Part shown: positions 20,470-51,745 of the stretch, piece after piece
Position numbering within the stretch: position 1 is the first letter of the stretch
Layout of the letters: each line of letters starts with the position of its first letter
Origin: Heterodontus francisci
Lineage: Eukaryota
Reading direction: 5' to 3'
DNA length: 64,000 bases
Assembly: GCF_036365525.1 (NCBI RefSeq)
Contig: NC_090377.1
Span: 100,247,141-100,311,140, forward strand
Position numbers and translations under genes: made by a program
Notes under the pieces: model-generated
Seen by the model: the letters and a program-made list of their open reading frames with translations, nothing else
The model's database searches: none
Told to the model about the DNA's origin: nothing

Positions 20470-21035
20470 TGGTGCTGTGATCTCAGCAAGGGTGGGTGCA
20501 GTCTCAGGTGCTGGGATCTCTGTAAGGGTGGGCACAGTCTTGGGTGCTGTGATCTCAGCAAGGGTGGGCACAGCCCCAGGTGCTGGGATCTCGATAAGGG
20601 TGGGCACAGTTTTGGGTGCTGTGATCTCAGCAAGGGTGGGTGCAGTCTCAGGTGCTGGGATCTTTGTAAGGGTGGGCACAGTCTCGGGTGCTGTGATCTC
20701 AGCAAGGGTGGGCACAGTTTCGGGCGCTGGGATCTCTGTAAGGGTGGGCACAGTCTCAGGTGCTGGGATCTCGATAAGGGTGGGCACAGTTTCGTGTGCT
20801 GTGATCTCAGCAAGGGTGGGTGCAGTCTCAGGTGCTGGGATCTTTGTAAGGGTGGGCACAGTCTCGGGTGCTGTGATCTCAGCAAGGCTGGGCACAGTCT
20901 CAGGCGCTGGGATCTCTGTAAGAGTGGGCATAGTCACAGGTGCTGGGATCTCCATCAGGGTGGGCACAGTCTCGTGTGCTGTGATCTCAGCAAGGATGGA
21001 CGCAGTCTCGGGTGCTGGGATCTTTGCAAGGGTGC
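20470..21035. repeat. 36-bp minisatellite, ~16 units, with 180-bp higher-order period
   Basis: Unit GGTGCTG(T/G)GATCTC(AGC/TGT/GAT)AAGGGTGGGCACAGTCTC(A/G). The 60-mers starting at 20641 and 20821 are identical. Confidence 0.95.
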
Positions 21036-21309
21036 AGCAAGGCACTCATGCATCCTCAGGAGTAAGTAGTAACAGGAAGGTCCTAAGGCAAGATCATGTC
21101 TCCCACGACAGCACGCAGGAGGTGCAGAGAATAGCTGGCCCGGGTCTCATACACCCAGTCTTTGTGGACCCCCTTGCCATGCAGCAGCGGCTCAGCGGGA
21201 GGGAGGGCCAAGATCTGGCCAGCCCCGCCAGTAAAGCTCTAATAGAGTGGCAGCAGCAGCAGCCACGCCAAGAAGGGCCTATCCTCAGCAGAGAGTGGAC
21301 TTGTCTGAA

Positions 21310-21724
21310 CTAGCTGCAAATGTCCAGCAGTGTCAGCGAGGACTACGGCTCTCCAGGGAGGCCATTATTGACTTATGCGCCACGCTGCAGGACAACCTAT
21401 GACTCATGTCCGTGACCCTGAAGATCACTGTGGCACTCAACTTCCACGCATCTGGCTTTTTCCAGGGATCCACTGGGGACATGTTTGGGGTCTCCCAGGC
21501 AGCTGCCCATTGCTGCATCAAGGAGTGACCAATGCCCCACTCGATAGGGCTGGCAACTATTGTGTTACCAGACCAACCCTGGCAGTCAGGCGGAGAGGGT
21601 CATCGGCTTGGGAGCTATTGCTGGATTCCCCCAGGTGCAAGGTGTCATTGACTGCATGCATATGGCCATCAAGGCTCACACGGAGTAGCCTACTGCCTTC
21701 ATCAACAGGAAAGGCTTCCATTCG
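21310..21724 (+). pseudogene. Harbinger (HARBI1-like) DDE transposase, N-terminal half
   Basis: CQRGLRLSREA, LKITVALNFHASGFFQGSTGDMFGVSQAAAHCCI, AGFPQVQGVIDCMHMAIKA, FINRKGFHS. Confidence 0.9.
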
Positions 21725-21841
21725 GATATGGGGATAGTGTGGGAATATGGCGCTGAGGTAGACAATCAGCCAAGATCTAGCATGGCGGAGAAGGCTTGAA
21801 GGGCTGAATGGCCTACTCTTGCCCTTATGTTCCTATGTTCT
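21725..21841 (+). mobile_element. CR1 3' UTR fragment
   Basis: GGATATGGGG...GAAGGGCTGAATGGCCTACTCTTGCCCTTATGTTCCTATGTTC. Confidence 0.8.
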
Positions 21842-22649
21842 GTGCTGCTGACACCAGAGGCTCGACATCAGCCTGGGACTCAGCATGGGCCAGACCTCCC
21901 ACAGTCCTCTGACTGTCTGTGGCCTCAGCTGTCTCAGCCTCAGCCAGCTGCCTGGGTGCTTTTGTGGTGTCGTCATCAGCTTGTGACCCTGAATCTAAGC
22001 CTGAGCACATTCCCATTGATATGAAAATATCTGTGCGGGTGGAGGATGCAGGGGAATGATGTGACGGTGCATCCTCCGACTGTTACTCCTCCTCCTCAGA
22101 GGTTGATGGCAGTGCCCCTGCTCCAGTGGCTGAGCTTGGCTCCGAAGTGCCATATCCTGCAGGAGAGAATGCAAACATTTGTGGATTAGGTTGTTCAGAT
22201 CGCCTCATGCCAACCAAGTGTGATGTGGATCTCTGGAAGTGTGGTGGAGGAGACATGAGCACAATAGGCTGAATTTTGTTATGAAGATGAGGGTCCTGGT
22301 GGCAGGCTGGAAGGTTGGCTCCACTTTGTAATTACACTGCCTGCCAAACCTTTAAAAGATGAGCTCCCATCTCCAAGAGCTGCCAGCCAGTTGGAAGGGC
22401 TGGCAGCTCTGCAGTATCGGCAGCACCATGGGAGCAAACCCCAGGAGAGGTGAGTGGGGTCGGGGTCACTGAGCCCATTCAGGCAGGGCCCAATGATGAG
22501 GAGGAGTGTGGGGTCAGTGAGGGTGGGGGACATCATCCTGGAGGGGGTGCAGGGTGGTGATTGCTGCCGAGGGGGTCCTCAGGGAGCCCTGGATTGCCCC
22601 AAAGGAGGGAGACCCCCCTCCCGTGACCAAGCTAGAAGGCCGCCAGGTT

Positions 22650-23416
22650 CCAACAAAGAATGCAGTTATGTTTTACAGACCAAGTAATTACAGAACCAGG
22701 AAAACAAGCTGTAAAAATAATGATAGCAATTGGAAATGAGGGATTTACACAGAATCAATACCTCTGGATTATCTGAACAGGACAAGAAAGATCCCACAAA
22801 GATATGGAAAGTGCTGGAAGGTCAACTCCGATTATGAGTGAATTTCAGAATTCTCCACCTGGAATTGATGTCCTGTAGGCAACAGCCACAGGAATCAATA
22901 GACCAGTTTGTCAGTAGATGCCATAGTAAGGGCAATGAATGTGGCTTCTCAGAAACTCAGCTGTCAGAGCGACTAATGGAGTTGGTGATTGTTTCAACAC
23001 CCATTGAAGCATTTCAGAAGGACCTCTTGGGGAAAATGAAAGGTCACAGCATCGATGCACTGATGGAAGATGGCAGGAAACATGAAGCCATTGTAGCTGG
23101 ACAACAGCACCTACAAGCACTAGGTGCAGCCAACAGTATCGGCACCATAACCAGGTTTAAAAAGGCAAGCAAGCTGTGTGGTAAATGTGGTAGGTCCCAC
23201 ACATGGCAAAATAGCCCTGCATTTCGAGACCTATGGAAGCGTGCAGTGCAAAAGGACACTGGACCTGCTTATGCGGGAATTCTGGCTCCGAAGACACAGC
23301 CAGAAATAATGGTCAGTTGCAAACAAACAGACAATAGGGCAACAGCAGCAAGGAAAGTGCCAGACACAGGTGTAAACGCAAGCCGATACACGAAATCCAC
23401 GGCAAAACAGACCTGA
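22650..23416 (+). pseudogene. Gypsy gag (capsid plus degenerate zinc knuckle)
   Basis: QQRMQLCFTD..IMIAIGNEG..DPTKIWKVLE, RQQPQESIDQFVSRC..ECGF (retrotransposon gag motif), CGKCGRSH knuckle. Confidence 0.85.
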
Positions 23417-23499
23417 GGCAAGACTCAAGAGAGAAGTAATTCTCAGTGAGAAGACAACTAAGCATTCCACATTGTGAACCTGACACATCATGTTGATGA

Positions 23500-23850
23500 A
23501 GTCAAACAACTGGATGCTTCAGCCACTTTCAGCATCATGTGCCCAAAGAAAGCTGGCAAACATACACTCAGGGTCAAGATTGACACTAGCTCTAGTGCAA
23601 ATATCCTCCCAGTCTGAATCCTCAAAGATATGTACTGGAGTCATTGGAAATCAATGATGCAACTGACAACTGCCAAACTATCTGCATACAATGGGCCTCC
23701 CATCCCTTGCAGTGGCACATTAACAATGCAATGCAGATATTGCAAGTTGACATGGAAACCACAAACGTTCTACCTAGTAGACACGAGCAGACCAGCAGTG
23801 GCAGAGCTACCAGTGTGTAAGGACCTCAATATCATACCATCCACAAGAGC
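23500..23850 (+). pseudogene. Retropepsin-type aspartic protease
   Basis: Frame +2 reads LRVKIDTSSSANILPV*..KLSAYNGPPIPCSG..FYLVD..LPVCKDLNII. The DT(G>S) active-site motif is present, with one in-frame stop. Confidence 0.85.
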
Positions 23851-23909
23851 AGTGCCAAGGGGAAATCTCCAAGGACCAGAACCCACTTGCAGACTCTGAC
23901 CAGCATCAA

Positions 23910-24317
23910 ATGGTGCAACAGCACAACTATGCCGTTCCTTCTCTTCTGCTCTCTAGAGAACTGCCAGCACCATAACAAGCCAGAACAGGTATCTCCATGA
24001 GACCAAGTACTCTTCCCCCAACATACCCTCAGCTTGAGCCCAAACCTTCAGACGTGGAGGATGAGGAGAGGCGAAGGACATGCAATGTCCTGAAGAGGCA
24101 GAGGAGGAATGAGTTGAAGCGTTGTCTGTTGGTTCTTCGGGAAGAGATGCCGGAACTTTCCAAGAATGGCAAGGCCTCCATTTTGAGACAAGCAACAGAG
24201 TATGTAAACAGGCTGAAGGCAGAACAACAGAAACTGAATGCAGAGAGGGAGAAAATTCAGAAAGAACAGCAACAGATGAGATGTGAATTCCCCGAGCAAG
24301 AGTTGTCAAACCACTGA
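23910..24317 (+). pseudogene. myc: Captured Myc-family C-terminus (QHNYA motif, NLS-like segment, bHLH-leucine zipper), N-Myc/c-Myc-like
   Basis: Frame +3 reads MVQQHNYAVPSLLLSRELPAP*QAR..PKPSDVEDEERRRTCNVLKRQRRNELKRCLLVLREEMPELSKNGKASILRQATEYVNRLKAEQQKLNAEREKIQKEQQQM. Compare N-Myc [55 protein letters not shown], and c-Myc RRTHNVLERQRRNELKR. One stop at 23973-23975. Confidence 0.93.
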
Positions 24318-24437
24318 GACGATTTATGGACTTCTGAGCCTCTATACCTGCAAACCCCACAATCTTTATCCATGTGTAAATAATTTTGATGTTATCCAAT
24401 GTTATGTGTTTTGCTTTTAGCATACGAGACCTCTTTT

Positions 24438-24450
24438 GAAAGAAGGGGAA
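24438..24450 (+). other. Polypurine tract
   Basis: GAAAGAAGGGGAA immediately before TGTTG. Confidence 0.85.
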
Positions 24451-24708
24451 TGTTGTGTGATTGCCTTTAAGAGTGATGTCCCTTTAAGATCTTAGTATGC
24501 TAATGAGCCAAGTGCCAGTACTCAGTCATGTGGCCACAAGCTTGCATCACTCTGTAACTGTAACACCAAGAGGCAGCTTCTGTAAATAGTTAGCTCTGTG
24601 CTGTATGTAATAGTTAGCTGTTACTAAACCTGTTTGAGATCTTCAACAACTGAACTCCATGCATATCATTTATGTTGCATCAGACAATATAAAAAGCTTC
24701 TCATTACA
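24451..24708 (+). mobile_element. 3' LTR (~258 bp) of the Gypsy-myc element
   Basis: TGTTGTG...CATTACA directly after the PPT, followed by GGTT. Confidence 0.8.
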
Positions 24709-25424
24709 GGTTTTATCTGGTGGTGTTTCCCAGTGGTGGTGGGACCCTCTGCCTTCCATTAAATTGAAGCGGAGGTGGGAAGAGGCTCTTAAATGGCCAT
24801 TAATTGGCCACTTTAGGGCCTCAATTGGCCTGGGTCGGGAACACTGTCCTTGGCCTTCCCTGCCCTGGAATAAATTGGAAGGCGTCAGGAAGGCGACGTG
24901 CACTCCACTCCCTGACTTGCGACACAATTTTCTGGGGCCCACCCACTTCTGTTCTTGTCTGGAGGGAACCATTAAATTCAGTCCAGTGTCTCCTTACTCT
25001 CTTGTGCTCAGCTGCCCTAGGCACCCACTAACTCCAGGACCTCCTCCTCTGCCGGTATCAGAGGATGCACATCAGGGGCCCCCATCGCCAATCCTTGTTT
25101 TCTTCCTGCTGTTATGGGCCTATTTCTCCTGCAAGCGGAAGGAGAGACACAGTTAGACGTTGCACGAAGAGCAAGTGGACACTAGTGGCAGCCACTCGTC
25201 CCCTGATGGGGTCTCCCAAATGGCTCCTCCTCATGTCCGCTCTCAGGGGATCTATTGGGGTTGAAAGAAGGTGACCTGTCGCTGGCATGCAGCCATGTGT
25301 CTGCCAGGATGTGCTAATGCCTCACTGCCATGCCACCACCTTTGTGGCCACTCCCTCCCCATGTAGCACTCCCTCCCGTGTAGCCACATACAAGTCCCAA
25401 AGAGGAGATAGGTATGGATGACTC

Positions 25425-25630
25425 ATGCTATTACTCTTGCGGCACTGGACCCTGTTCCCGCAGATGACCCCGCAGCTGCTGACCTCCTCTGCAATCTCCA
25501 TCGAGGCTTGCTTCGTCAAGCGAGAGGATCTCTTCTTGCCATCCCTTGGAAAGTGGACTTCCCACCTTTCCCTTCAGCCTGGTGGAGAATCTCGAGGGAA
25601 ACATTGCTAAGCCATGGGGCCACCTGGTGC
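25425..25630 (-). pseudogene. Harbinger-associated Myb/SANT-like DNA-binding protein, first exon (a probable later exon lies at ~21850-22160)
   Basis: VAPWLSNVSLEILHQA..EVHFPRDGKKRSSRLTKQASMEIAEEVSS..NRVQCRK, read across one frameshift. Confidence 0.8.
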
Positions 25631-25719
25631 GTTGCCTCGGGCATGGTCCCATTTGGCTCCCACACCATCTGTTCAGTTCACAGTCCTGGTGCAGGGGTGC
25701 AGGGACGTCCAGCAGCAGT

Positions 25720-26165
25720 AGTGGGGAAGTCCAGGAGTTGCAGCAGTAGAGGGGGGGGTCCCGCCGCAACAACAGCACTAGAGGGGAGTCCAGCAGCAAC
25801 AGCAACAGTACAGAGGCGGCCAGGAGTAACAACAGTGCTAGAGTCAGGTTCGGAGTAACACCACCAGTAGAGCGGGTCCGGGAGTAACAGCAGCAGCAGA
25901 GGGGGGTCCAGGAGTAACAGCAGCAGTAGAGGGGGTATCCAAGAGTAAAATCAGCAGTAGAGGGGTGTCCAAGAGTAAAAGCAGCAGCAGAGGGGGGTCT
26001 AAGAGTAACAGCAGTGGCAGAGGGAAGTCCAAGAGTAACAGCAGCAGCAGAGGGGTTCCAGGAGTAACAGCAGCAGCAGAGGGGGGTCCAGGAGTAACAG
26101 CAGCAGCAGAGGGGGGTCCAGGAGTAACAGCAGCAGCAGAAGGGGGTCGAGGAGGCAAGCAGCAG
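25720..26165. repeat. 30-bp minisatellite, ~14 units
   Basis: Unit CCAGGAGTAACAGCAGCAGCAGAGGGGGGT with variants. Confidence 0.9.
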
Positions 26166-26535
26166 AGAGGTCCAATAGCAGTCCAGAGTCACTGCATCAG
26201 TAAAAGGTAGCAGTACAAACAGGGCTGGCAGTGCTTTAAAGATGGCGCCAATATCTGTGTTTTCATCAGCTGATGCAGCCGTCAATGTCTCATAGCCCAC
26301 TCCCATCCTGCAATAGGATGGGCTCCGGACCTTGGTTATGTTAATTGGCTGACTGCTATGGGATCGCAATTGGTCAGCCGCGACAGGCTGTTAAAATTCA
26401 GCACATTTGTATAAATATAGTCTGAGCACCACCTTACTTCAGAATTCTACTTTATTACCACAAATGCTATTCTCCCCTGTGAATCATGAGATCACCATGT
26501 TATTCTGCAGTAATAATTTTGTAGAAACCTCTCTT

Positions 26536-27265
26536 CAGTCAGGCTAATGGGAAGATTCTTGGTAGTGTAGATGAGCAGAGAGATCTTGGTGTCCAGGTAC
26601 ATAAATCCCTGAAAGTTGCTACCCAGGTTAATAGGGCTGTTAAGAAGGCATATGGTGTGTTAGCTTTTATTAGTAGGGGGATCGAGTTTCGGAGCCACGA
26701 GGTCATGATGCAGCTGTACAAAACTCTGGTGAGGCCGCACCTTGAGTATTGCGTGCAGTTCTGGTCACCGCATTATAGGAAGGATGTGGAAGCTTTGGAA
26801 AGGGTGCAGAGGAGATTTACTAGGATGTTGCCTGGTATGGAGGGAAGGTCTTACGAGGAAAGGCTGAGGGACTTGGGGTTGTTTTCGTTGGAGAGAAGGA
26901 GGAGGAGAGGTGACTTAATAGAGACATACAAGATAATCAGAGGGTTAGATAGGGTGGATAGTGAGAGTCTTTTTCCTCGGATGATGATGGCAAACACGAG
27001 GGGACATAGCTTTAAGTTGAGGGGTGAAAGATATAGGACAGATGTCAGAGGTAGTTTCTTTACGCAGAGAGTAGTAGGGGCGTGGAACGCCCTGCCTGCA
27101 ACAGTAGTAGACTCGCCAACTTTAAGGGCATTTAAGTGGTCATTGGATAGACATATGGATGAAAATGGAATAGTGTAGGTCAGATGGTTTCACAGGTCTG
27201 CGCAACATCGAGGGCCGAAGGGCCTGTACTGCGCTGTAATGTTCTAATTCTAATTCTAATTCTAT
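26536..27265 (+). mobile_element. CR1 (HER1-like) LINE, 5'-truncated, young
   Basis: Uninterrupted ORF2 C-terminus LYKTLVRPHLEYCVQFWSPHYRKD..RGDLIETYKI..FFTQRVV. Tail (TTCTAA)n. Confidence 0.95.
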
Positions 27266-37250: not shown

Positions 37251-40200
37251 ATATCACATATCATAACAATATCATATCACAGACACACATCACCAATCAC
37301 AAATGCCCATCACCAATCAGAGACACACATCATTAATCACAGACACACATCACCAATCAAAGACACACATCAACAATCGCAGACACATATCACCAATCAC
37401 AGACAAATCACCAATTTCAAACACACGTCCTCAATCCCAGACACACACCATCAATTACAGGCAGACATCATCGATCACAGAGACACATCACCAATCACAG
37501 ACACACATCATCAATTACACCCACTCATCATTAATCACAGACACGTCAGCAATTACAGACACACGTCATCAATCATAGACACACGACCTGAATCACAGAA
37601 ACACGTCATCAATCACAGTCACACATCAGCAATCACAGACATACATCACAAAGCAGTCACACATCGCCAGTCACAGTCTCACATCACAAATCACAGACAC
37701 ACCTCATCAATTACAGAAACACGTCATCAACCACTGTTACACATCGACGATCACAGGCATACATCACAAACCAGTCACACGTCAGCAATGACAGACACAC
37801 GTCATCAATCACAGACACATGTCACAATTACAGACACACATCATCAATTCCACACACACGTCCTCAATCACGGAAACATGTCATCAATCACAGTCACACA
37901 TGTCACCAATCACAGTCACACATCATTAATGACAGACACACATCATCAATCCCAGTTACACATCACCTATCACAGACATAGATAGAAATAGTCACACATC
38001 ACCAATAACAGGTACATGTCACCAATCACTCTAACACATCACCAATCACAGACACACAGCACAAATTACAGATGCACGTCATCAATCATGGACACACGTC
38101 AATAATCACAGATGCAGAACACCAATCACAGTCACACATCATCGATGACTGACACACATCACCAATCAGACACATATCACCAATCACCGACACACTTAAC
38201 CAATCACAGACACACATCACCAATTACAGACACACATCATCAATTCCACACACACGTCCTCAATCACGGAAACATGTCATCAATCACAGTCACACATGTC
38301 ACCAATCACAGTCACACATCATCAATGACAGACACACATCATCAATCCCAGTCACACATCACCTATCACAGACATAGATAGAAATAGTCACACATCACCA
38401 ATAACAGGTACACGTCACCAATCACTCTAACACATCGCCAATCACAGACACACAGCACAAATCAAAGATGCACGTAATCAATCATAGACACATGTCACCA
38501 ATCACAGACGCAGAACACCAATCACAGTCACACATCATCAATGACTGACACATCATCAATCAGACACGTGTCACCAATCACAGATGCACATCATCAATCA
38601 CAGACACACATCAACAATCACAGACAAACATCATAAATTACAGACACACATCATCAGTTAGAGACTCACGTCATAAATCACAGACACACACAACAATCAC
38701 AGACACACATCATAAATTACAGACAAACATCATCAATTAAAGGCTCAGGTCATAAATCACAGACACACATCGCCAATCACAGACACTCATCAATTACAGA
38801 CTCATGTCATAAATCACAGACACATCATCAATCAGAGACAAACACCATCAATTACAGACTCACATAATCAATCACAGACACACACCACCAATCACAGTCG
38901 CACCTCATCAATCACAAAGACACATCACCAATCACAGACACACATCACCAATCACAGACACACATCATCAATTACAGACTCACGTCATAAATCACAGACA
39001 CACATCATCAATCAGAGATACACATCATCAATCAGCGACACACATCATCAATTCCAGACACACAACATCAATCAAACACAGACACACATTATCAATCACA
39101 GACACAGATCAATTACAGACGCATGTCATAAATCACTGACAAACATCATCAATCAGAGACAAACACCATCAATTCCAGACACACATCATAAATCCCACAC
39201 ACACGTCCTCAATCACGGAAACATGTCATCAATCACAGTCACACATTGCCAATCACAGACACACATCATCAATGACAGACACACATCATCAATCCCAGTC
39301 ACACATCACCTATCACAGACAGAGATAGAAATAGTCACACATCACCAATAACAGGTACACGTCACCAATCACTCTAACACATCGCCAATCACAGACACAC
39401 AGCACAAATTACAGATACACGTCATCAATCATAGACACACGTCAATAATCACAGACGCAGAACACCAATCACAGTCACACATCATCGATGACTGACACAC
39501 ATCACCAATCAGACACATGTCACCAATCACCGACACATTTAACCGATCACAGACCCACATCAATCACAGACACACATCATCAGTCAGAGACACAACAATT
39601 ATAGATACACATCATTAATCACAGACACATGTCACCAATCACAGACACACATCATCAATTACAGACACACGTCCTCAATCACGGAAACATGTCATCAATC
39701 ACAGTCACACATTGCCAATCACAGACACACATCACAAATCACAGACACATGTCACCAATCACAGTCACACATCATCAATGACAGACACACATCATCAATC
39801 CCAGTCACACATCACCTATCACAGACATACATAGAAATAGTCACACATCACCAATAACAGGTGCACGTCACCAATCACTCTAACACATCGCCAATCACAG
39901 ACACACAGCACAAATCAAAGATGCACGTAATCAATCATGGACACATGTCACCAATCACAGACACAGAACACCAATCACAGTCACACATCATCAGTGACTG
40001 ACACATCACCAATCAGACACATGTCACCAATCACCGACACATTTAACCAATCACAGATGCACATCATCAATCACAGACAAACATCATCAATTGCAGACAC
40101 ATCATCAATGATAGACACACATCATCAATGATAGACACATCATCTATCACAGACATACATCGTTAAATACAGACACATATCAATCATAGACACACATCAT

Positions 40201-43200
40201 CAATTACATACATACACAGCAATCGCAGACACACATCGTTAATTACATACACAGCAATCGCAGACACACATCAATCGCAGACTCACATCATTAATTACAG
40301 ACACACATCATCAATCACTGACACATCATCAATCGCAGAGGCACATCATCAATCGCAGATGCACATCATCAATCACAGATACACATCATCAATCACAGAC
40401 GCATCATTAATTACAGACACACATCATTAATCACAGGCACACATCAACAAGCACAGACACATGTCATCAATCACAGAACCACATCACCAATCACAGACTC
40501 ACATCACCAATCACAGACTCACATCACCAATCACAGCCACACATCATCAGTCACAGTCAGACATTATCAATCACAAACACACACCATCAATTACAGACAC
40601 ACATAATCAATTACAGATATACAACATCAATCAGAGACACATAATCTCAATCACAGACACACATCACCAAAGACACACATCACCAATCACACATGCACAT
40701 TATTAATCACTGACAAACATCATCAATTACAGGCACACATCATCAATGACAGACATACATCACCATTCACAGACACACATCATTAATTACAGACTCATCA
40801 TCAATCACAGACACACATCATCAATTACTGATACATATCATCAATTACAGACACACATCATCTTGACAGACACAGGTCATCATTCACAGACGCACATCAT
40901 TAATTTCAGACACAGATCATCAATTACAGACGCACATAATCAATGACAGACACACGTCATCAATCACAGATGCATCATCAATCACAGACAAACTTCATCA
41001 ATTTCAGACACACATCATCACTCATAGACACACATCATCAATGTCAGACACTCGTCATCAATAGCGGACAGACATCATCAATCAGAGACAAACGTCATCA
41101 ATTTCAGACACACATCATCAATCAGAGACACACATCATCAATCAGAGACACACATCATCAATCACAGACACACGTCATCAATCACAGACACACATCATCA
41201 ATCACAGACACACATCATCAATCACAGACAAACTTCATCAATCGCAGACACACATCATCCATCAAAGACACACGTCATCAATCACAGACAAACTTCATCA
41301 ATCACAGACACACATCATTAATCACAGAGACATGTCATCAATTACAGACATACATCATTAATCACAGACACACATTGCCAATTACAGATGCACATCATTA
41401 ATTACAGACACACATCAGCACTCACAGACACACATCATCAATTTCAGACACACATCATCAATCACAGACAAACTTAATCAATCACAGACACACATCATTA
41501 ATCACAGAGACACGTCATCAATTACAGACACACGTCATCAATTACAGACACACATCATCAATTACAGACACACATCGTCAATGATAGACACACATCATTC
41601 AGAGACACGCATCATTAATTACAGACAAACATCATCAATCACAGACAGACAGACATCATCAATGACAGACACACATCAACATTTACAGATCCACATCATC
41701 AAACACTGACACACATCATTAATCACAGACGCATCATTAATTACAGACACACATCATTAATCACAGGCACAGGTCATCAATCACAAACACACATCATGAA
41801 TAACAGACACACATGATTAATTGCAGAGACACCTCGTTAATTACAGACAAACACATTCAATCACAGACAAACATCATTAATCACAGACACAGATCATCAA
41901 TCACAGACACACATAATTAATTACAGACACACATCATTAATCACAGGCACACATCATCAATCACAAACATCATTAACCACAGCCACAGATCATCAATTTC
42001 AGACACACATCATCAATCACAGACACACATCATTAATCACAGCGACACGTCATCAATCGCAGACACACGTCATCAATCACAGACACACATCATCAATTAC
42101 AGACACCCATCATCAATCACATACAAACATCATCAATTTCAGACACACATCATCAATCACAGACACACATCATTAATCACAGAGAAACGTCATCAATCAC
42201 AGACACACATCATCAATCACATACAAACGTCATCAATTTCAGACACACATCATCACTCAAAGACACACATCATCAATCACAGGCACACATCATTAATTAC
42301 AGACACACATCGTCAATCACAGGCACACATCATTAATTAAAGACACACATCATCAATCACAGACAGACGTCATCAATTTCAGTCCCACATCATCATCCAC
42401 AGGCACACATCATTAATCACAGAGACATGTCATCAATCGCAGACACACATCATCCATCAAAGACACACATCATCAATCACAGGCACACATCATTAATCAC
42501 AGAGACACGTCATCAATCGCAGTCACACGTCATCCATCAAAGACACACATCATCAATCAGAGACAAACATCATTAATTACAGACACCACATCACCAATCA
42601 CAGGCACATATCATCAATCACACACACATCACCAATCACAGACGCACATCATCAATCACAGACACACATCACCAATCACAGACACACATTACCAATCACA
42701 GACAAACATCAGCAATCACAGATACTCATCAGCAATCAGAGACACACATCATTTACTTCAGACACACCTCATTAATTACACAGACACCATCAATCACAGA
42801 AACACATCGTCAATCGCAGATGCACGTCATCAATCACAGATACACATCATCAATCACAGCCACACATCACCAATCACAGTCAGACATTATCAATTACTGA
42901 CACACACCATCAATTACAGACACACATAATCAATTACAGACATACATCATCAATCAGAGAGACACAACCTCAATCACAGTCACACATCACCAATCACAGA
43001 CAGACATCAGTAATTACAGACACACATCATCAATTACATACAAACATCATCAATTTCAGACACACATCATCACTCAAAGACACACATCATCAATCACAGA
43101 CATACATCATCAATCACAGACACATATCATTAATCACAGAGACACGTCATCAATCGTAGACGCATATCATCCATCAAAGACACACATCATCAATCAGAGA

Positions 43201-46200
43201 CAAACATCATTAATTACAAACATTCATCATCAATTACAGACACCACATCACCAATCACAGGCACACATCATCAATCACACACAAATCGCCAATCACAGAT
43301 GCGTATCATCAATTACAGACCAACATCACCAATCACAGACACACATCATTAATTACAGACACACATCGTTAGTTACAGACACACATCATCAATCACAGAC
43401 AAACACCAGCAATCACAGGCACACATCATTTATCACAGATACACATCAATCAGAGACAAACATCATTAATTACAAACGCAGTTACCAATCATAGACACAC
43501 ATCATTATTCACTGATACACATCACCAATCACAGACACAGATCGTTAATTACAGACACACATCACCAATCAGAGACACACATTACCAGTCACAGACACAC
43601 ATCAGCAATCACAGACACAACTCATTAATTGCACAGACACCATCAATTACAGAAACACATCGTCAATCGCAGATGCACATCATCAATCACAGTCAGACAT
43701 TATCAATTACAGATGCACACCATCAATTACAGACACACATAATCAATTACAGACATACAACATCAATCAGAGACACTCAACCTCAATCATAGTCACACAT
43801 CACCAATCACAGACACACATCATCAATTACAGATGCACATCATTAATAACTGACAAACATCACCAATCACAGACACACATCAGTAATTACAGACACACAT
43901 CATTAATTACAGACACTTCATCAATCACAGACACACATCAGAAATTACAGACAGATATCATCAGTTACAGACACATAATCGATGACAGACACGTCATCAT
44001 TCACAGACACACATCATCACTCACAGACACACATCATCCATCACAGACACATGTCATCAATCACAGACAAACTTCATCAATTACAGACACACATCATCAA
44101 TCACAGACACACTTCATCCATCAAAGAGACATGTCATCAATCACAGATGCACATCGTTAATTACAAACGTCATCAATCACAGACAAACATCATCAATTTC
44201 AGACACACCTCATCAATCACAGACAGACATCATCAATCACAGACACGTCATCATTCACAGACACACGTCATCAATCACAGACACACACCATCAATCACAG
44301 ACAGAAATCACAAATCACAGACACACATCATCAATCACAGACAAACATAATCAATTTCAGACACACATCATCAATCACAGACAGACATCATCAATCACAG
44401 ACACGTCATCATTCACAGACACACGTCATCAATCACAGCCACACACCATCAATCACAGACAGAAATCACAAATCACAGACACACATCATCAATCACAGAC
44501 ACACTTCATCCATCAAAGAGACATGTCATCAATCACAGACACACATCGTTAATTACAAACGTCATCAATCACAGACAAACATCATCAATTTCAGACACAT
44601 CATCAATCACAGACAGACATCATCAATCACAGACACGTCATCAATCACAGACACACATCATCAATCACAGACAAACATCATCAATCACAGACACGTCATC
44701 ATCCATTAAAGAGACATGTCATCAATCACAGATACACATCGTTAATTACAAACGTCATCAATCACAGACAAACATCACCAATCACAGACGCACATCATCA
44801 ATCACAGACACACATCACCAATCACAGACACACATTACCAATCACAGACAAACATCAGCAATCACAGATACTCATCAGTAATCAGAGACACACATCATTT
44901 ATTTCAGACACACCTCATTAATTACACAGACACCATCAATCACAGAAACACATAGTCAATCGCAGATGCACATCATCAATCACAGAACCACGTCACCAAT
45001 CACAGCCACACATCACCAATCACAGTCAGACATTATCAATTACTGACACACACCATCAATTACAGGCACACATAATCAATTACAGACATACATCATCAAT
45101 CAGAGAGACACAACCTCAATCATAGTCACACATCACCAATCACAGACAGACATCAGTAATTACAGACACACATCATCAATCACATACAAACATCATCAAT
45201 TTCAGACACACATCATCACTCAAAGACACACATCATCAATCACAGACATACATCATCAATCACAGACACACATCATTAATCACAGAGACACGTCATCAAT
45301 CGTAGACGCACATCATCCATCAAAGGCACACATCATCAATCAGAGACAAACATCATTAATTACAAACATTCATCATCAATTACAGACACCACATCACCAA
45401 TCACAGGCACACATCATCAATCACACACAAATCGCCAATCACAGATGCATATCATCAATTACAGACCAACATCACCAATCACAGACACACATCATTAATT
45501 ACAGACACACATCGTTAGTTACAGACACACATCATCAATCACAGACAAACACCAGCAATCACAGGCACACATCATTTATCACAGATACACATCAATCAGA
45601 GACAAACATCATTAATTACAAATGCAGTTACCAATCATAGACACATATCATTATTCACTGATACACATCACCAATCACAGACACAGATCGTTAATTACAG
45701 ACACACATCACCAATCAGAAACACACATTACCAGTCACAGACACACATCAGCAATCACAGACACAACTCATTAATTGCGCAGACACCATCAATCACAGAA
45801 ACACATCGTCAATTGCAGATGCACATCATCAATCACAGATACACATCATCAATCACAGTCAGACATTATTAATTACAGACGCACACCATCAATCACAGAT
45901 ACACATCATCAATCACAGTCAGACATTATCAATTACAGACGCACACCATCAATTACAGACACACATCATTAATTACAGACACTTCATCAATCACAGACAC
46001 ACATCAGAAATTACTGACAGATATCATCAGTTACAGACACATAATCGATGACAGACACGTCATCATTCACAGACACACATCATCACTCACAGACACACAT
46101 CATCCATCACAGACACATGTCATCAATCACAGACAAACTTCATCAATTACAGACACACATCATCAATCACAGACACACTTCATCCATCAAAGAGACATGT

Positions 46201-49200
46201 CATCAATCACAGATGCACATCGTTAATTACAAACGTCATCAATCACAGACAAACATCATCAATTTCAGACACACCTCATCAATCACAGACAGACATCATC
46301 AATCACAGACACGTCATCATTCACAGACACACGTCATCAATCACAGACACACACCATCAATCACAGACAGAAATCACAAATCACAGACACACATCATCAA
46401 TCACAGACAAACATAATCAATTTCAGACACACATCATCAATCACAGACAGACATCATCAATCACAGACACGTCATCATTCACAGACACACGTCATCAATC
46501 ACAGCCACACACCATCAATCACAGACAGAAATCACAAATCACAGACACACATCATCAATCACAGACACACTTCATCCATCAAAGAGACATGTCATCAATC
46601 ACAGATGCACATCGTTAATTACAAACATCATCAATCACAGACAAACATCATCAATTTCAGACACATCATCAATCACAGACAGACATCATCAATCACAGAC
46701 ACGTCATCAATCACAGACACACATCATCCATCACAGACACACACCATCAATCACAGACAGAAATCACAGACACACATCATCAATCACAGACAAACATCAT
46801 CAATCACAGACACGTCATCATTCACAGACACATGTCATCAATCACAGACACACACCATCAATCACAGACAGAAATCACAAATCACAGACACACATCATCA
46901 ATCACAGACACACATCATCAATCACAGACACACTTCATCCATTAAAGAGACATGTCATCAATCACAGATACACATCGTTAATTACAAACGTCATCAATCA
47001 CAGACACACATCACCAATCACAGACACACATTACCAATCACAGACAAACATCAGCAATCACAGATACTCATCAGCAATCAGAGACACACATCATTTATTT
47101 CAGACACACCTCATTAATTACACAGACACCATCAATCACAGAAACACATCGTCAATCGCAGATGCACATCATCAATCACAGAACCACGTCACCAATCACA
47201 GCCACACATCACCAATCACAGTCAGACATTATCAATTACTGACACACACCATCAATTACAGACACACATAATCAATTACAGACATACATCATCAATCAGA
47301 GAGACACAACCTCAATCACAGTCACACATCACCAATCACAGACAGACATCAGTAATTACAGACACACATCATCAATCACATACAAACATCATCAATTTCA
47401 GACACACATCATCACTCAAAGACACACATCATCAATCACAGACATACATCATCAATCACAGACACACATCATTAATCACAGAGACACGTCATCAATCGTA
47501 GACGTACATCATCCATCAAAGGCACACATCATCAATCAGAGACAAACATCATTAATTACAAACATTCATCATCAATTACAGACACCACATCACCAATCAC
47601 AGGCACACATCATCAATCACACACAAATCGCCAATCACAGATGCATATCATCAATTACAGACCAACATCACCAATCACAGACACACATCATTAATTACAG
47701 AGACACATCGTTAGTTACAGACACACATCATCAATCACAGACAAACACCAGCAATCACAGACACACATCATTTATCACAGATACACATCAATCAGAGACA
47801 AACATCATTAATTACAAACGCAGTTACCAATCATAGACACACATCATTATTCACTGATACACATCACCAATCACAGACACAGATCGTTAATTACAGACAC
47901 ACATCACCAATCAGAAACACACATTACCAGTCACAGATACACATCAGCAATCACAGACACAACTCATTAATTGCGCAGACACCATCAATCACAGAAACAC
48001 ATCGTCAATTGCAGATGCACATCATCAATCACAGATACACATCATCAATCACAGTCAGACATTATCAATTACAGACGCACACCATCAATTACAGACACAC
48101 ATAATCAATTACAGACATACAACATCAATCAGAGACACTCAACCTCAATCATAGTCACACATCACCAATCACAGACACACATCAGTAATTTCAGACACAC
48201 ATCATCAATCACAGACAGACATCATCAATCACAGACACGTCATCATTCACAGACACACGTCATCAATCACAGACACACACCATCAATCACAGACAGAAAT
48301 CACAAATCACAGACACACATCATCAATCACAGAGGCACGTCATCGATCGCAGACACACGTCATCCATCAAAGAGACATGTCATCAATCACAGACACACAT
48401 CATTAATTACAGACACACATCATCAATCAGAGACACACATCATCAATTACAGACACATCATCAATCACAGCCAGCTATCATTATTACAGAGACACGTCAT
48501 CAATCGCAGATACACATCATCCATCAAAGAGACACGTCATCAATCACAGACACACATCGTTAATTACAGACACACATCGTCAATCACAGACAAACATCAG
48601 CAATCGCAGATACACATCATCCATCAAAGAAACACGTTACCAATCACAGACACACATCGTTAATTACAGACACACATCGTCAATCACAGACAAACATCAG
48701 CAATCGCAGACACAGTTCATCAATCACAGACACACGTTACCAATCACAGACACACATCGTTAATTACAGACACACATCGTTAATTACAGACACACCTCAT
48801 CAATCACAGACAAACATCAGCAATCGCAGCCACACATCAATCGCAGACAGACATCATTAATTTCAGACACACCTCATTAATTACAGACACACATCATCAA
48901 TCACAGACGCTCAATGTCAATCCGAGATGCACATCATCAATTACAGATACACATCAATAATCAAAGACACACATCATCAGTGACGGACACACGTCATCAA
49001 TGGGAGACACACATCATTAATCACAGACAAAATATCAATTACAGAAACACATTACCAATCACAGACACACTTCACCAATCACAGACACGCGTCATTAATT
49101 ACAGACACACATCATCAATCACAGACAAACATCAGCAATCGCAGAGACACATCATCAATCGCAGACTCACATCATTAATTACAGACACACATCATCAATC

Positions 49201-51745
49201 ATAGGCACACATCGACCATCACAGATGCATATCATCAACCCCAAACACATATCACCTATTACAGACACACATCATTAATTACAGACATACATCATAAATC
49301 AGAGAGACACATCATCAATCACAGAGCATCATTAATTACAGACACACATCATTAATCACAGGCACACGTCATAAGTCACAGAACCACATCACCAATCACA
49401 GACATACAACACCAATCAAAGCAACACATCATTAAATACAAACACACATCATCAATCACAGGCACACACCATCAATTACAGACGCATCATCAATCACAGA
49501 GACACATCATCAATCACAGACACACATCATTAAATATAGACATTCATCATTAATCACAGACACACGTCACCAATCACAGGCACACATCATCAATTACAGA
49601 CGCATCATCAATCACAGAGACACATCATCAATCACAGACACACATCACCAATTACAGACACATCATCAATTACAGACACACATCACCAATCACAAACACA
49701 TATATTTAATTACAGACACACATCATCAACCACAGACACACATCATTCATCACAGACGCATCATTAATTACAGACACACATCATTATTCACTGACACACA
49801 TCATTCATCACAGACACAGATCATTAATTATAGACACATCATCACTCACAGACACACGTTATCAATCAGAGACAAAATTCATCAAATACAGACACAAATC
49901 ATCAATCACAGACGAACGTCATTAATCACAGGCACACATCATCAATCACAGACACGCATCATCAATCACAGGCACACATCATCAATCACAGACACGCATC
50001 ATCATTCACAGACACAGATCATTAAATACAGACATACATCATTAATCACAGACACACGTCATCAATCAGAGGCACACATCATCAATCACAGACACGCATC
50101 ATCATTCACAGACACAGATCATTAAATACAGACAGACATCATTAATTACAGACACAATTACCAATCACTGACACACATCATTAAACACAGACATATTATC
50201 AGTTACAGAAAAACATCACCAGTCACAGATACACATCACCAATCACAGACACACGTCATCAATCACAGGCACACATCATGAATCACAGCCAGAAATCATC
50301 AATCACAAACACACATCATGAATCACAGACACAAATCACCAATCACAGCCACACATCAATCACAGCCACACATCATCAGTCACAGACATACATCAGCATT
50401 AACAGACACATATCACCAATCACAGCTACACATCATCAATCACAGTCAGACATCATCATTCACAGACACACATCATTAATCACAGACTTATTATCAATTA
50501 CAGAAACACATCACCAATCACAGACACACATCTTCAATCACAGATACACGTCATCAATCACAGTCACACACCATCAATCACAGACAGAAATCACAAATCA
50601 CACACACATCATCAATCACAGACACACATCACCAAGCACAGACACACATCACCAATCACAGACACACATCATCAATCACAGACACACATCATCAATCACA
50701 GACACACATTACCAATCACAGACACACATCATCAATTACGGACACACATCATCAATCACAGACACACATCATCAGCTACAGACACACATCATCAATCACA
50801 GACACACTTCATCAATCACAGACACACATCATCAATCACAGACACACATCACCAATCACAGACACACTTCATCAATCACAGACACACATCATTAGTCACT
50901 GACACACATTATCAATTACGTACACACATCATCAATCACAGCCACACCACATCAATCACAGACACACATCACCAATCAGAGACACACATCATTTATGACT
51001 GACACACATCATCAATTATAGACACATCATCATTTACAGACACAGATCATTAATTACAGACACACATAATCAATCACAGACACACATCATCAATCACTGA
51101 CACATATCATCAACTCCAGACACACATAATCAATTACAGACACATGTCATCAATCACAGACACACATCATCAATCACTGACACATACCATCAACTACAGA
51201 CACACATAATCAATTACAGACACATTTCATCAATCACAGACACACATTATCAATCACAGACACACATCACCAATCACCGACACAGATCATCAGTTACTGA
51301 CACACATTATCAATTACGGACACACATCATCAATCACAGACACACATAATCAGTTACAGACACACATCATCAATCACAGACACACATCATTAAAGACAGA
51401 CATACATCATCAATCAGAGACACACATCATTTATGACTGACACACATCATCAATTATAGACACATCATCATTTACAGACACAGATCATTAATTACAGACA
51501 CACATAATCAATCACAGACACATATCATCAACTACAGACACACATAATCAATTACAGACACATGTCATCAATCACAGACACACATTATCAATCACAGACA
51601 CACATCACCAATCACCGACACAGATCATCAGTTACTGACATACATTATCAATCCACACGCACATCATCAATCACAGACACACATCACCAATTATAGACAC
51701 AGATCGTTAATTACAGGTACGTATCATTAATCACAGACACACGTC
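37251..51745. repeat. ~14.5 kb satellite, ~20-bp monomer CATCAATCACAGACACACAT
   Basis: Continuous diverged tandem units, A/C-rich on the + strand, with ~2.1-2.2 kb higher-order duplications. Confidence 0.98.

Follow-up and report, generated by a model that had tools for sequence, protein, structure and literature searches.

A dispersed Gypsy-type LTR retrotransposon family with part of the host mych gene in place of most of pol

The window element and its family

The 64-kb stretch of DNA analyzed here (the window) contains, on its forward strand, the remains of an LTR retrotransposon that carries Myc-family sequence. The parts of this element, in window coordinates, are as follows:

22647 to 23461 (+): decayed gag, truncated at its 5' end, with a CCHC-type region near 23171 to 23270; homology to other copies begins at 22647, and the gag-pro relatives are Gypsy-order polyproteins
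23462 to 23846 (+): decayed aspartic protease region with the catalytic motif at 23582; 79 to 88% nucleotide identity to 18 pol-bearing copies of the same family until ~23847
23847 to 24289 (+): captured part of the last exon of host mych, with the QHNYA box, an NLS-like motif, the basic region, the HLH (24069 to 24218) and most of the zipper; 83% nucleotide identity to the host gene L037 (G000:C16) versus 69% over 101 nt to MYC, with Pfam HLH and PDB c-Myc matches
24290 to 24437 (+): remnant of the parent integrase C-terminal tail and 3' untranslated region; 76 to 78% identity to the pol-bearing elements L119 and L121 from 24300, with the same terminal integrase motif in an alternative frame
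24438 to 24450 (+): polypurine tract (PPT), recognized by its sequence; a purine-rich tract precedes the 3' LTR in 30/30 copies
24451 to 24708 (+): 3' LTR of 258 nt, TG...CA, at which the family homology stops; copies elsewhere have this LTR at their 5' end, and the pol-bearing parents have it too (73 to 82% over long matches)

The gag, protease motif, PPT, and TG..CA LTR that the initial annotation had placed on one strand are all present, on the + strand. The 113-aa frame at 23976 to 24314 matches Pfam HLH (E value of 1.2e-7) and, in the PDB comparison, c-Myc chains at an E value of 1e-15 versus 4e-5 for Max. Thus, the earlier identification of a Myc-family bHLH-ZIP segment stands, but the boundaries given for it (23910 to 24317) do not; the host-derived DNA is 23847 to 24289, and it stops before the host stop codon. 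The AT-rich stretch that had been called UTR-like is not a myc UTR, since 24300 to 24450 is the end of the parent integrase and the 3' region. The window element contains neither RT nor RNase H nor an integrase core, and poly(A) is likewise missing, which bears out the initial annotation if its "integrase" is read as the integrase core; the remnant at 24300 to 24450 is integrase tail. The window gag and protease fragments have no Pfam match. No 5' LTR, primer binding site (PBS), leader, or gag start belonging to this copy is found anywhere in the 64-kb window, and its protease and myc parts are in different frames because of private indels. The window element belongs to a dispersed Gypsy-type LTR family whose pol has largely been exchanged for mych, and it is itself decayed and 5'-truncated.

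Several other repeats lie near the element. It is flanked by fragments at 21235 to 21734 (+) and ~25320 to 25580 (-) that resemble a Harbinger-type transposase and a Myb/SANT partner. The only Pfam match is a sub-threshold one to Plant_tran (E value of 0.0011), and the other frames have no match; the element may have inserted into a DNA transposon. Small arrays of a 36-bp unit (20471 to 21034) and a 30-bp unit (25710 to 26170) lie beside the element region, and a 14.5-kb array of a 20-bp unit (~734 copies, strong strand skew) occupies 37271 to 51742. A 217-aa open frame at 26525 to 27178 (+) has no Pfam match and resembles the C-terminal end of a CR1/L2-type LINE ORF2.

When window positions 23700 to 24720 were used to search the genome (G000, 6.0 Gb), 6,752 first-look candidates were obtained, of which the best 40 were scored. 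(Throughout, 40 candidates were scored per search unless stated, and first-look candidates are not copy numbers.) Besides the window, the 40 comprise 39 further places, distributed over 21 contigs and with 81 to 84% identity, and the junction between protease and myc is spanned in 38 of the 39. The myc segment as a query gave 2,819 first-look candidates, and 40/40 scored were true matches. Direct reading of 76 loci, in four sets, found mych-derived DNA in every one (30/30, 6/6, 20/20, and 20/20). Sampling favors copies that resemble the queries: short copies were picked because they resemble the window, long copies because they resemble either host exon 2 or one integrase tail, and L041 to L046 partly for long open frames; the frequencies of groups among the loci read are not genome-wide. 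The family has probably been copied across the genome thousands of times.

All six of the short-form copies that were extended have a 5' LTR. The element length is ~2.9 to 3.5 kb, which leaves no room for pol. LTR pairs in the extended copies are 85 to 92% identical, and in four of the six a PBS-like motif, which we read as tRNA-Leu-like, directly follows the 5' LTR. The flanks differ between copies, and the copies have individual target site duplications (TSDs) of 5 bp; among 10 two-LTR copies (a tally that leaves out L002, whose 5' LTR is truncated), four have an exact TSD, three have one with a single mismatch, and three are poor or unresolved. Paired TG..CA LTRs, a PBS, a PPT, and a short TSD place the family as a non-autonomous derivative of a Gypsy/Metaviridae LTR retrotransposon. 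The initial annotation had proposed such a family and had named dispersed copies with the same junctions, together with paired LTRs and distinct TSDs, as the marks of one that transposes. These are what we found, along with the pol-bearing parent family described below.

All of the copies read are old and decayed. K2P distances between paired LTRs are 0.07 to 0.16 (13 near-full pairs). At the pedigree mutation rate published for the epaulette shark, 7e-10 per generation (PMC10587355), these distances would correspond to ~75 million generations, which is implausible, and we do not offer a date. Younger SINE- or LINE-like insertions (LTR-like in L078) interrupt the myc copies L051, L071, L078, L082, and L086, which is consistent with an old family. 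Contigs of two further organisms also bridge element junctions, the protease-myc junction in organism B (X9 record 30 and X5 record 15) and the junction of myc with the integrase tail in organism C (X13 record 7).

The relatives of the gag-pro region are Gypsy-order polyproteins (PR-RT-RNase H-IN) with 35 to 38% identity, the named ones being from sea urchin and bivalve. With a 528-aa relative as the query, we found pol-bearing elements in G000 (best 82 of 45,576 candidates scored). Eighteen of the 20 pol-bearing matches read belong to the same family as the myc elements; they are 82 to 89% identical to them up to the breakpoint and then continue into RT. L117, L119, and L121 match the RT, RNase H, and then the integrase of P0053, in that order, and have the same LTR and no myc. 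One of the three parents read further has a PBS. No env is seen in L119 and L121, in which the 3' LTR directly follows the integrase end. The parent may belong to the Mag/K02A2.6-like clade. Equal-length queries of 431 nt gave 2,819 first-look candidates for myc, 2,171 for the parent RT, and 4,055 for the shared protease, and although these are not copy numbers, they suggest that the defective myc form is about as common as its helper.

Three other searches for the parent were unproductive. No match was obtained with a degenerate pattern for the RT continuation, no longer homologue of the protease plus RT stub was present among 212 candidates, and an integrase-tail DNA query led to myc-bearing copies in 20/20 checked. 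A second, more distant pol-bearing Gypsy family (L103 and L107) has 67 to 69% nucleotide identity to the protease of the myc elements. There are also signs of nested or rearranged parents: an inverted RT copy with 93% identity lies at G000:C14:46906629-46907061, ~9 kb from L119, and L117:2954-3773 is a second RT-RNase H stretch after the integrase.

The donor gene and the capture junctions

All 30 short copies match exon 3 of host mych at 83 to 91% nucleotide identity, versus 65 to 70% for MYC/MYCN where these match at all. Among named proteins, the nearest are mych of elasmobranchs ("myelocytomatosis oncogene homolog") and models that bear the names N-myc-like or myc-like and are labeled Heterodontus francisci. 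A Myc_N search of G000, in which the best 119 of 1,624 candidates were scored, identified three genes that match at the N terminus, and MYCL was not recovered among the candidates scored. One of the three genes, L037 on C16, has two exons that translate identically to the mych protein P0005; the name mych for the donor rests on the database label of P0005, "myelocytomatosis oncogene homolog." A mych gene is also reported from zebrafish (PMC2323570). Host mych and all 69 copies in the DNA tree cluster together (100/100); the base of the cluster is star-like, the branch to the host measures 0.034, and the terminal branches are ~0.08. The deep branches of this tree and of the protease tree are weakly supported, with bootstraps that had not settled. 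Based on nucleotide identity and the tree, we conclude that the donor is host mych and not MYC or MYCN, and the initial annotation's assignment of the segment to a host gene of the Myc family is upheld. Element copies also contain linker residues that are specific to the host relative to the seven other elasmobranch genera sampled, from which it follows that the capture postdates the split from those genera.

The query with host exon 2 gave 948 candidates, and 39/39 non-host matches cover only the last 191 nt of this exon. Myc boxes I and II are therefore absent from the copies and were never captured. Exons 2 and 3 are joined directly, without the 1.7-kb intron, in all 26 long copies (6/6 and 20/20), which identifies the donor as a spliced mRNA. 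The myc stop codon, UTR, and poly(A) are absent from the insert in the loci read. At the 5' capture point, parent and host mRNA have 7 exact nt in common; at the 3' point they agree in 12 of 17 nt, with 8 exact. Both points are in frame; the chance that a random junction has at least 7 nt is 0.0006, and at least 8 nt is 0.0002. Microhomology at both capture points fits double template switching and mobilization in trans.

The most common distance from the protease Asp to the myc QHNY is 354 nt (11 of 30 short copies), and the distance is a multiple of 3 in 17/30, which indicates that myc is in frame with gag-pro in the family. The frame of myc is preserved across all three unbiased junctions, namely the two capture points and the deletion of the short form (P of ~0.04 if frame is random). 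The in-frame junctions of L041 and L042, loci picked for long open frames, were left out of this statistic.

The copies fall into three structural forms. In form A, an RT stub and the exon 2 tail are retained together with exon 3 and a portion of the integrase tail. Form B is without most of the integrase tail. In form C, that of the window, the acidic region is missing as well, along with exon 2 and the RT stub, and the window form has kept only 23847 to 24289 of myc. In the myc tree, form C groups with two form B copies (98/85). In the protease tree, long form A mixes with one parent sublineage and short form C is nearest another, with weak deep support. Net synonymous divergence between A and C is 0.086 in the protease versus 0.025 in myc. 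These comparisons suggest that the myc cassette has recombined into successive helper backbones.

At five sites in exon 3 of host mych (L037, codons 72 to 94 and 140 in the numbering of the frame compared), forms A and B differ from the host (in 0.71 to 1.0 of copies), and form C mostly matches it. Since form C does this although it groups with B copies, later conversion between host mych and the form C lineage, in either direction, is suggested.

Origin of the family and fate of the captured Myc

The sequence of events that best accounts for these observations begins with a spliced host mych mRNA that would have been co-packaged in a particle of the Gypsy-type retrotransposon. Reverse transcriptase would then have switched to this mRNA and back at two short matching stretches, exchanging ~2.9 kb of pol (a stretch that begins ~25 codons into RT and reaches the C-terminal part of integrase) for ~0.72 kb of mych, in frame at both ends and consisting of the last 191 nt of exon 2 and most of exon 3. 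The chimera would have retained the LTRs, PBS, PPT, gag, and protease, and because these were kept, the pol-bearing parent could reverse transcribe it and integrate it in trans in the germ line. By this route the chimera would have been amplified to an abundance like that of the parent, with later internal deletions giving the shorter subfamilies and with the cassette recombining into successive parent backbones. Mobilization in trans had been proposed in the initial annotation; the pol-bearing parent family that it calls for exists, and we infer the mobilization itself. Taken as a whole, the account of capture, mobilization in trans, and a Myc fragment most likely carried as a passenger is, in our judgment, very probably correct.

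Whether the captured Myc mattered to the element was assessed by selection tests and by comparison of functional residues. Net N/S between forms A and C is 0.88 in myc (0.31 to 3.04, an interval that includes 0.31 and marks a low-power test) versus 0.36 (0.16 to 0.70) in the protease; the low protease value may have arisen in the helper. In myc, the non-CpG changes that lineages share number 12 N to 6 S, compared with a neutral value of 2.43. Thus, no purifying selection on myc was detected by these low-power N/S tests. The myc part is free of in-frame stops in only 11/71 copies, and none of the 30 short copies has an open frame through gag, pro, and myc, the longest frame being 394 aa. Host residues at three positions are kept to different extents in forms A, B, and C. 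The lysine of the NLS-like motif, which we assume to function as an NLS, is kept in 20/27, 7/14, and 0/30 copies, respectively; H5 is kept in 15/27, 9/14, and 4/30, and E9 in 10/27, 3/14, and 1/30. R10, R12, and R13 are mostly unchanged across the forms. We consider it the likeliest outcome, with some reservation, that the Myc fragment was a mere passenger, carried within a gag-pro-myc frame that was open. Two observations count against pure neutrality: the three in-frame junctions, which it would not predict, and the presence of changes at the NLS-like Lys, H5, and E9 among only 9 amino acid changes shared by form C (post hoc P of 0.004 to 0.016). A possibility that we view as doubtful but not negligible is that the fragment was expressed and under selection, was kept in frame and passed between helpers, and was stripped stepwise of nuclear import and E-box reading as the family reached thousands of copies. 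If so, the family would be a germ line fossil record of oncogene transduction by a nonviral retrotransposon.

A related explanation has the same origin and another selective story. The founder Gag-Pro-Myc(bHLH-ZIP) protein, lacking transactivation boxes, could have bound Max and acted as a dominant negative in germ line or early embryo cells, and lineages that lost nuclear import and E-box reading would have been less harmful and spread further. In favor of this are the counts of host residues kept at the three sites in the three forms; the host residue at all three is common to 7/7 other elasmobranch mych proteins. By the PDB comparison, H5 and E9 align with H359 and E363 of c-Myc, which are reported to read the E box and whose mutants still bind Max (10.1101/2020.05.04.076190), and zebrafish mych is described as anti-apoptotic in early embryos (PMC3958507). 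However, the sites were chosen post hoc, the H5 change lies in a CpG context, and the ratio of shared changes (9 N to 2 S) is not distinguishable from the neutral 2.43. Moreover, the H/E mutants are themselves reported to be dominant negative when overexpressed (10.1101/2020.05.04.076190), so that the changes need not detoxify the protein. We regard this selective story as rather unlikely.

It is improbable that the captured myc instead favored the growth or survival of the element, or of the cells that carried it, and was retained by selection in the manner of v-myc. The in-frame fusion at all three unbiased junctions and the helper-like abundance would be expected in that case, and per-copy pN/pS to the host has medians of 0.56 to 0.73, but this per-copy ratio takes in synonymous changes on the host branch, and the net N/S is that given above. 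The copies also lack Myc boxes I and II, E9 is altered in 29 of 30 short copies, and few copies are free of stops in the myc part. Of the possible roles, that of a passenger or of a disarmed oncogene appears most likely, not that of a v-myc-like driver.

An origin in which a LINE placed a processed mych pseudogene within an LTR element that later underwent deletions and was amplified is disfavored and very unlikely. The insert is indeed intronless, and LINE-like sequence is common in the genome (presumably including the window frame at 26525 to 27178), but the insert has no stop codon, 3' UTR, or poly(A), pol is replaced rather than interrupted, and both ends share microhomology with the parent. 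A one-off insertion, misassembly, or segmental duplication, to which the truncated window copy without a 5' LTR might have pointed had it stood alone, is refuted, because the same junctions recur at 38 of the 39 other places, because flanks and TSDs differ between copies, and because element junctions occur in the two further organisms.

Relation to known captures and to database annotation

In acutely transforming retroviruses of the MC29 type, a gag-side fusion to spliced myc takes the place of pol, and the virus depends on a helper. The mych family has the same layout. It differs in that it is not a retrovirus, no env is seen, its spread is vertical through the germ line, and the donor is mych. 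We do not place it among the acutely transforming retroviruses, since its backbone relatives are Gypsy-order polyproteins and its myc part does not keep the transactivation domain and the E-box-reading residues; transforming activity would not be expected, because the transactivation boxes are absent and E-box-reading residues are changed. The analogy to v-myc drawn in the initial annotation therefore holds for anatomy and capture route but not for function: the N-terminal Myc boxes are missing, purifying selection was not detected, and DNA-reading residues are changed in the window subfamily.

The mechanism of capture has precedent in LTR-mediated retroposition in animals (Tan et al. 2016, PMC5131818). 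As described there, a partial spliced mRNA replaces internal ORFs, there is microsimilarity at both switch points (median of 6 bp in Drosophila), and the products can be non-autonomous elements. The mych family shows the corresponding features: intron loss, a replaced internal ORF, microsimilarity at both ends, no poly(A), and further rounds of transposition as a non-autonomous element, with dispersed copies that have their own TSDs. In contrast to the retrocopies reported in that study, of which two have more than one insertion site, the mych chimera rivals its parent and has several deletion subfamilies. Its cargo is a proto-oncogene, and the word "oncogene" is absent from the main text of PMC5131818.

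The nearest germ line precedent among the reports compared is the capture of KIT-ligand by a crocodilian endogenous retrovirus (CrocERV29, nine copies), reported together with a capture of nectin3 (CrocERV31, six copies) (Chong et al. 2014, PMC4299795). In these captures, as in that of mych, an LTR retroelement acquired a growth-related host mRNA, the host is a slowly evolving vertebrate, and the capture is fixed in the germ line. However, according to that report, CrocERV29 and CrocERV31 are retroviruses with few copies, and their captured ORFs are intact and under purifying selection, whereas the mych family is a Gypsy element with pol replaced, a partial in-frame fusion, far more copies, and no purifying selection detected. 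Multicopy fragments of host mRNA borne by retroelements are also reported for maize Bs1 (PMC7264820) and the Pxyfem retrocopies of the diamondback moth (PMC9674220), in a plant and an insect host, respectively, and with other cargo. Pxyfem copies are reported to be able to regulate their parent gene through small RNAs (PMC9674220), and copies of the mych element could have fed back on host mych through small RNAs or gene conversion.

Literature searches outside the repeat databases (Repbase and Dfam), journals behind subscription, and supplements on bioRxiv turned up no account of an LTR retrotransposon family that carries myc. The route of capture has been described before; the proto-oncogene cargo in a Gypsy element and the scale are unusual. 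Oncogene transduction is normally known from somatic, dead-end retroviruses, and here it is found in the germ line and in a Gypsy element, with many datable copies, several structural stages, and the donor gene and helper in the same genome. In this system, sequence alone can be used to test how capture junctions form, whether selection or disarming was the fate of the captured oncogene, and by what means a defective element stays abreast of its helper.

The family also bears on annotation. Database models named N-myc-like or myc-like (P0001, P0004, and P0006 to P0009) appear to be copies of the mych element. P0004 and P0007 begin with protease sequence, and P0007 to P0009 carry an RT stub. 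If these models are element copies, any "myc expansion" in sharks that is deduced by counting them would be an artifact.
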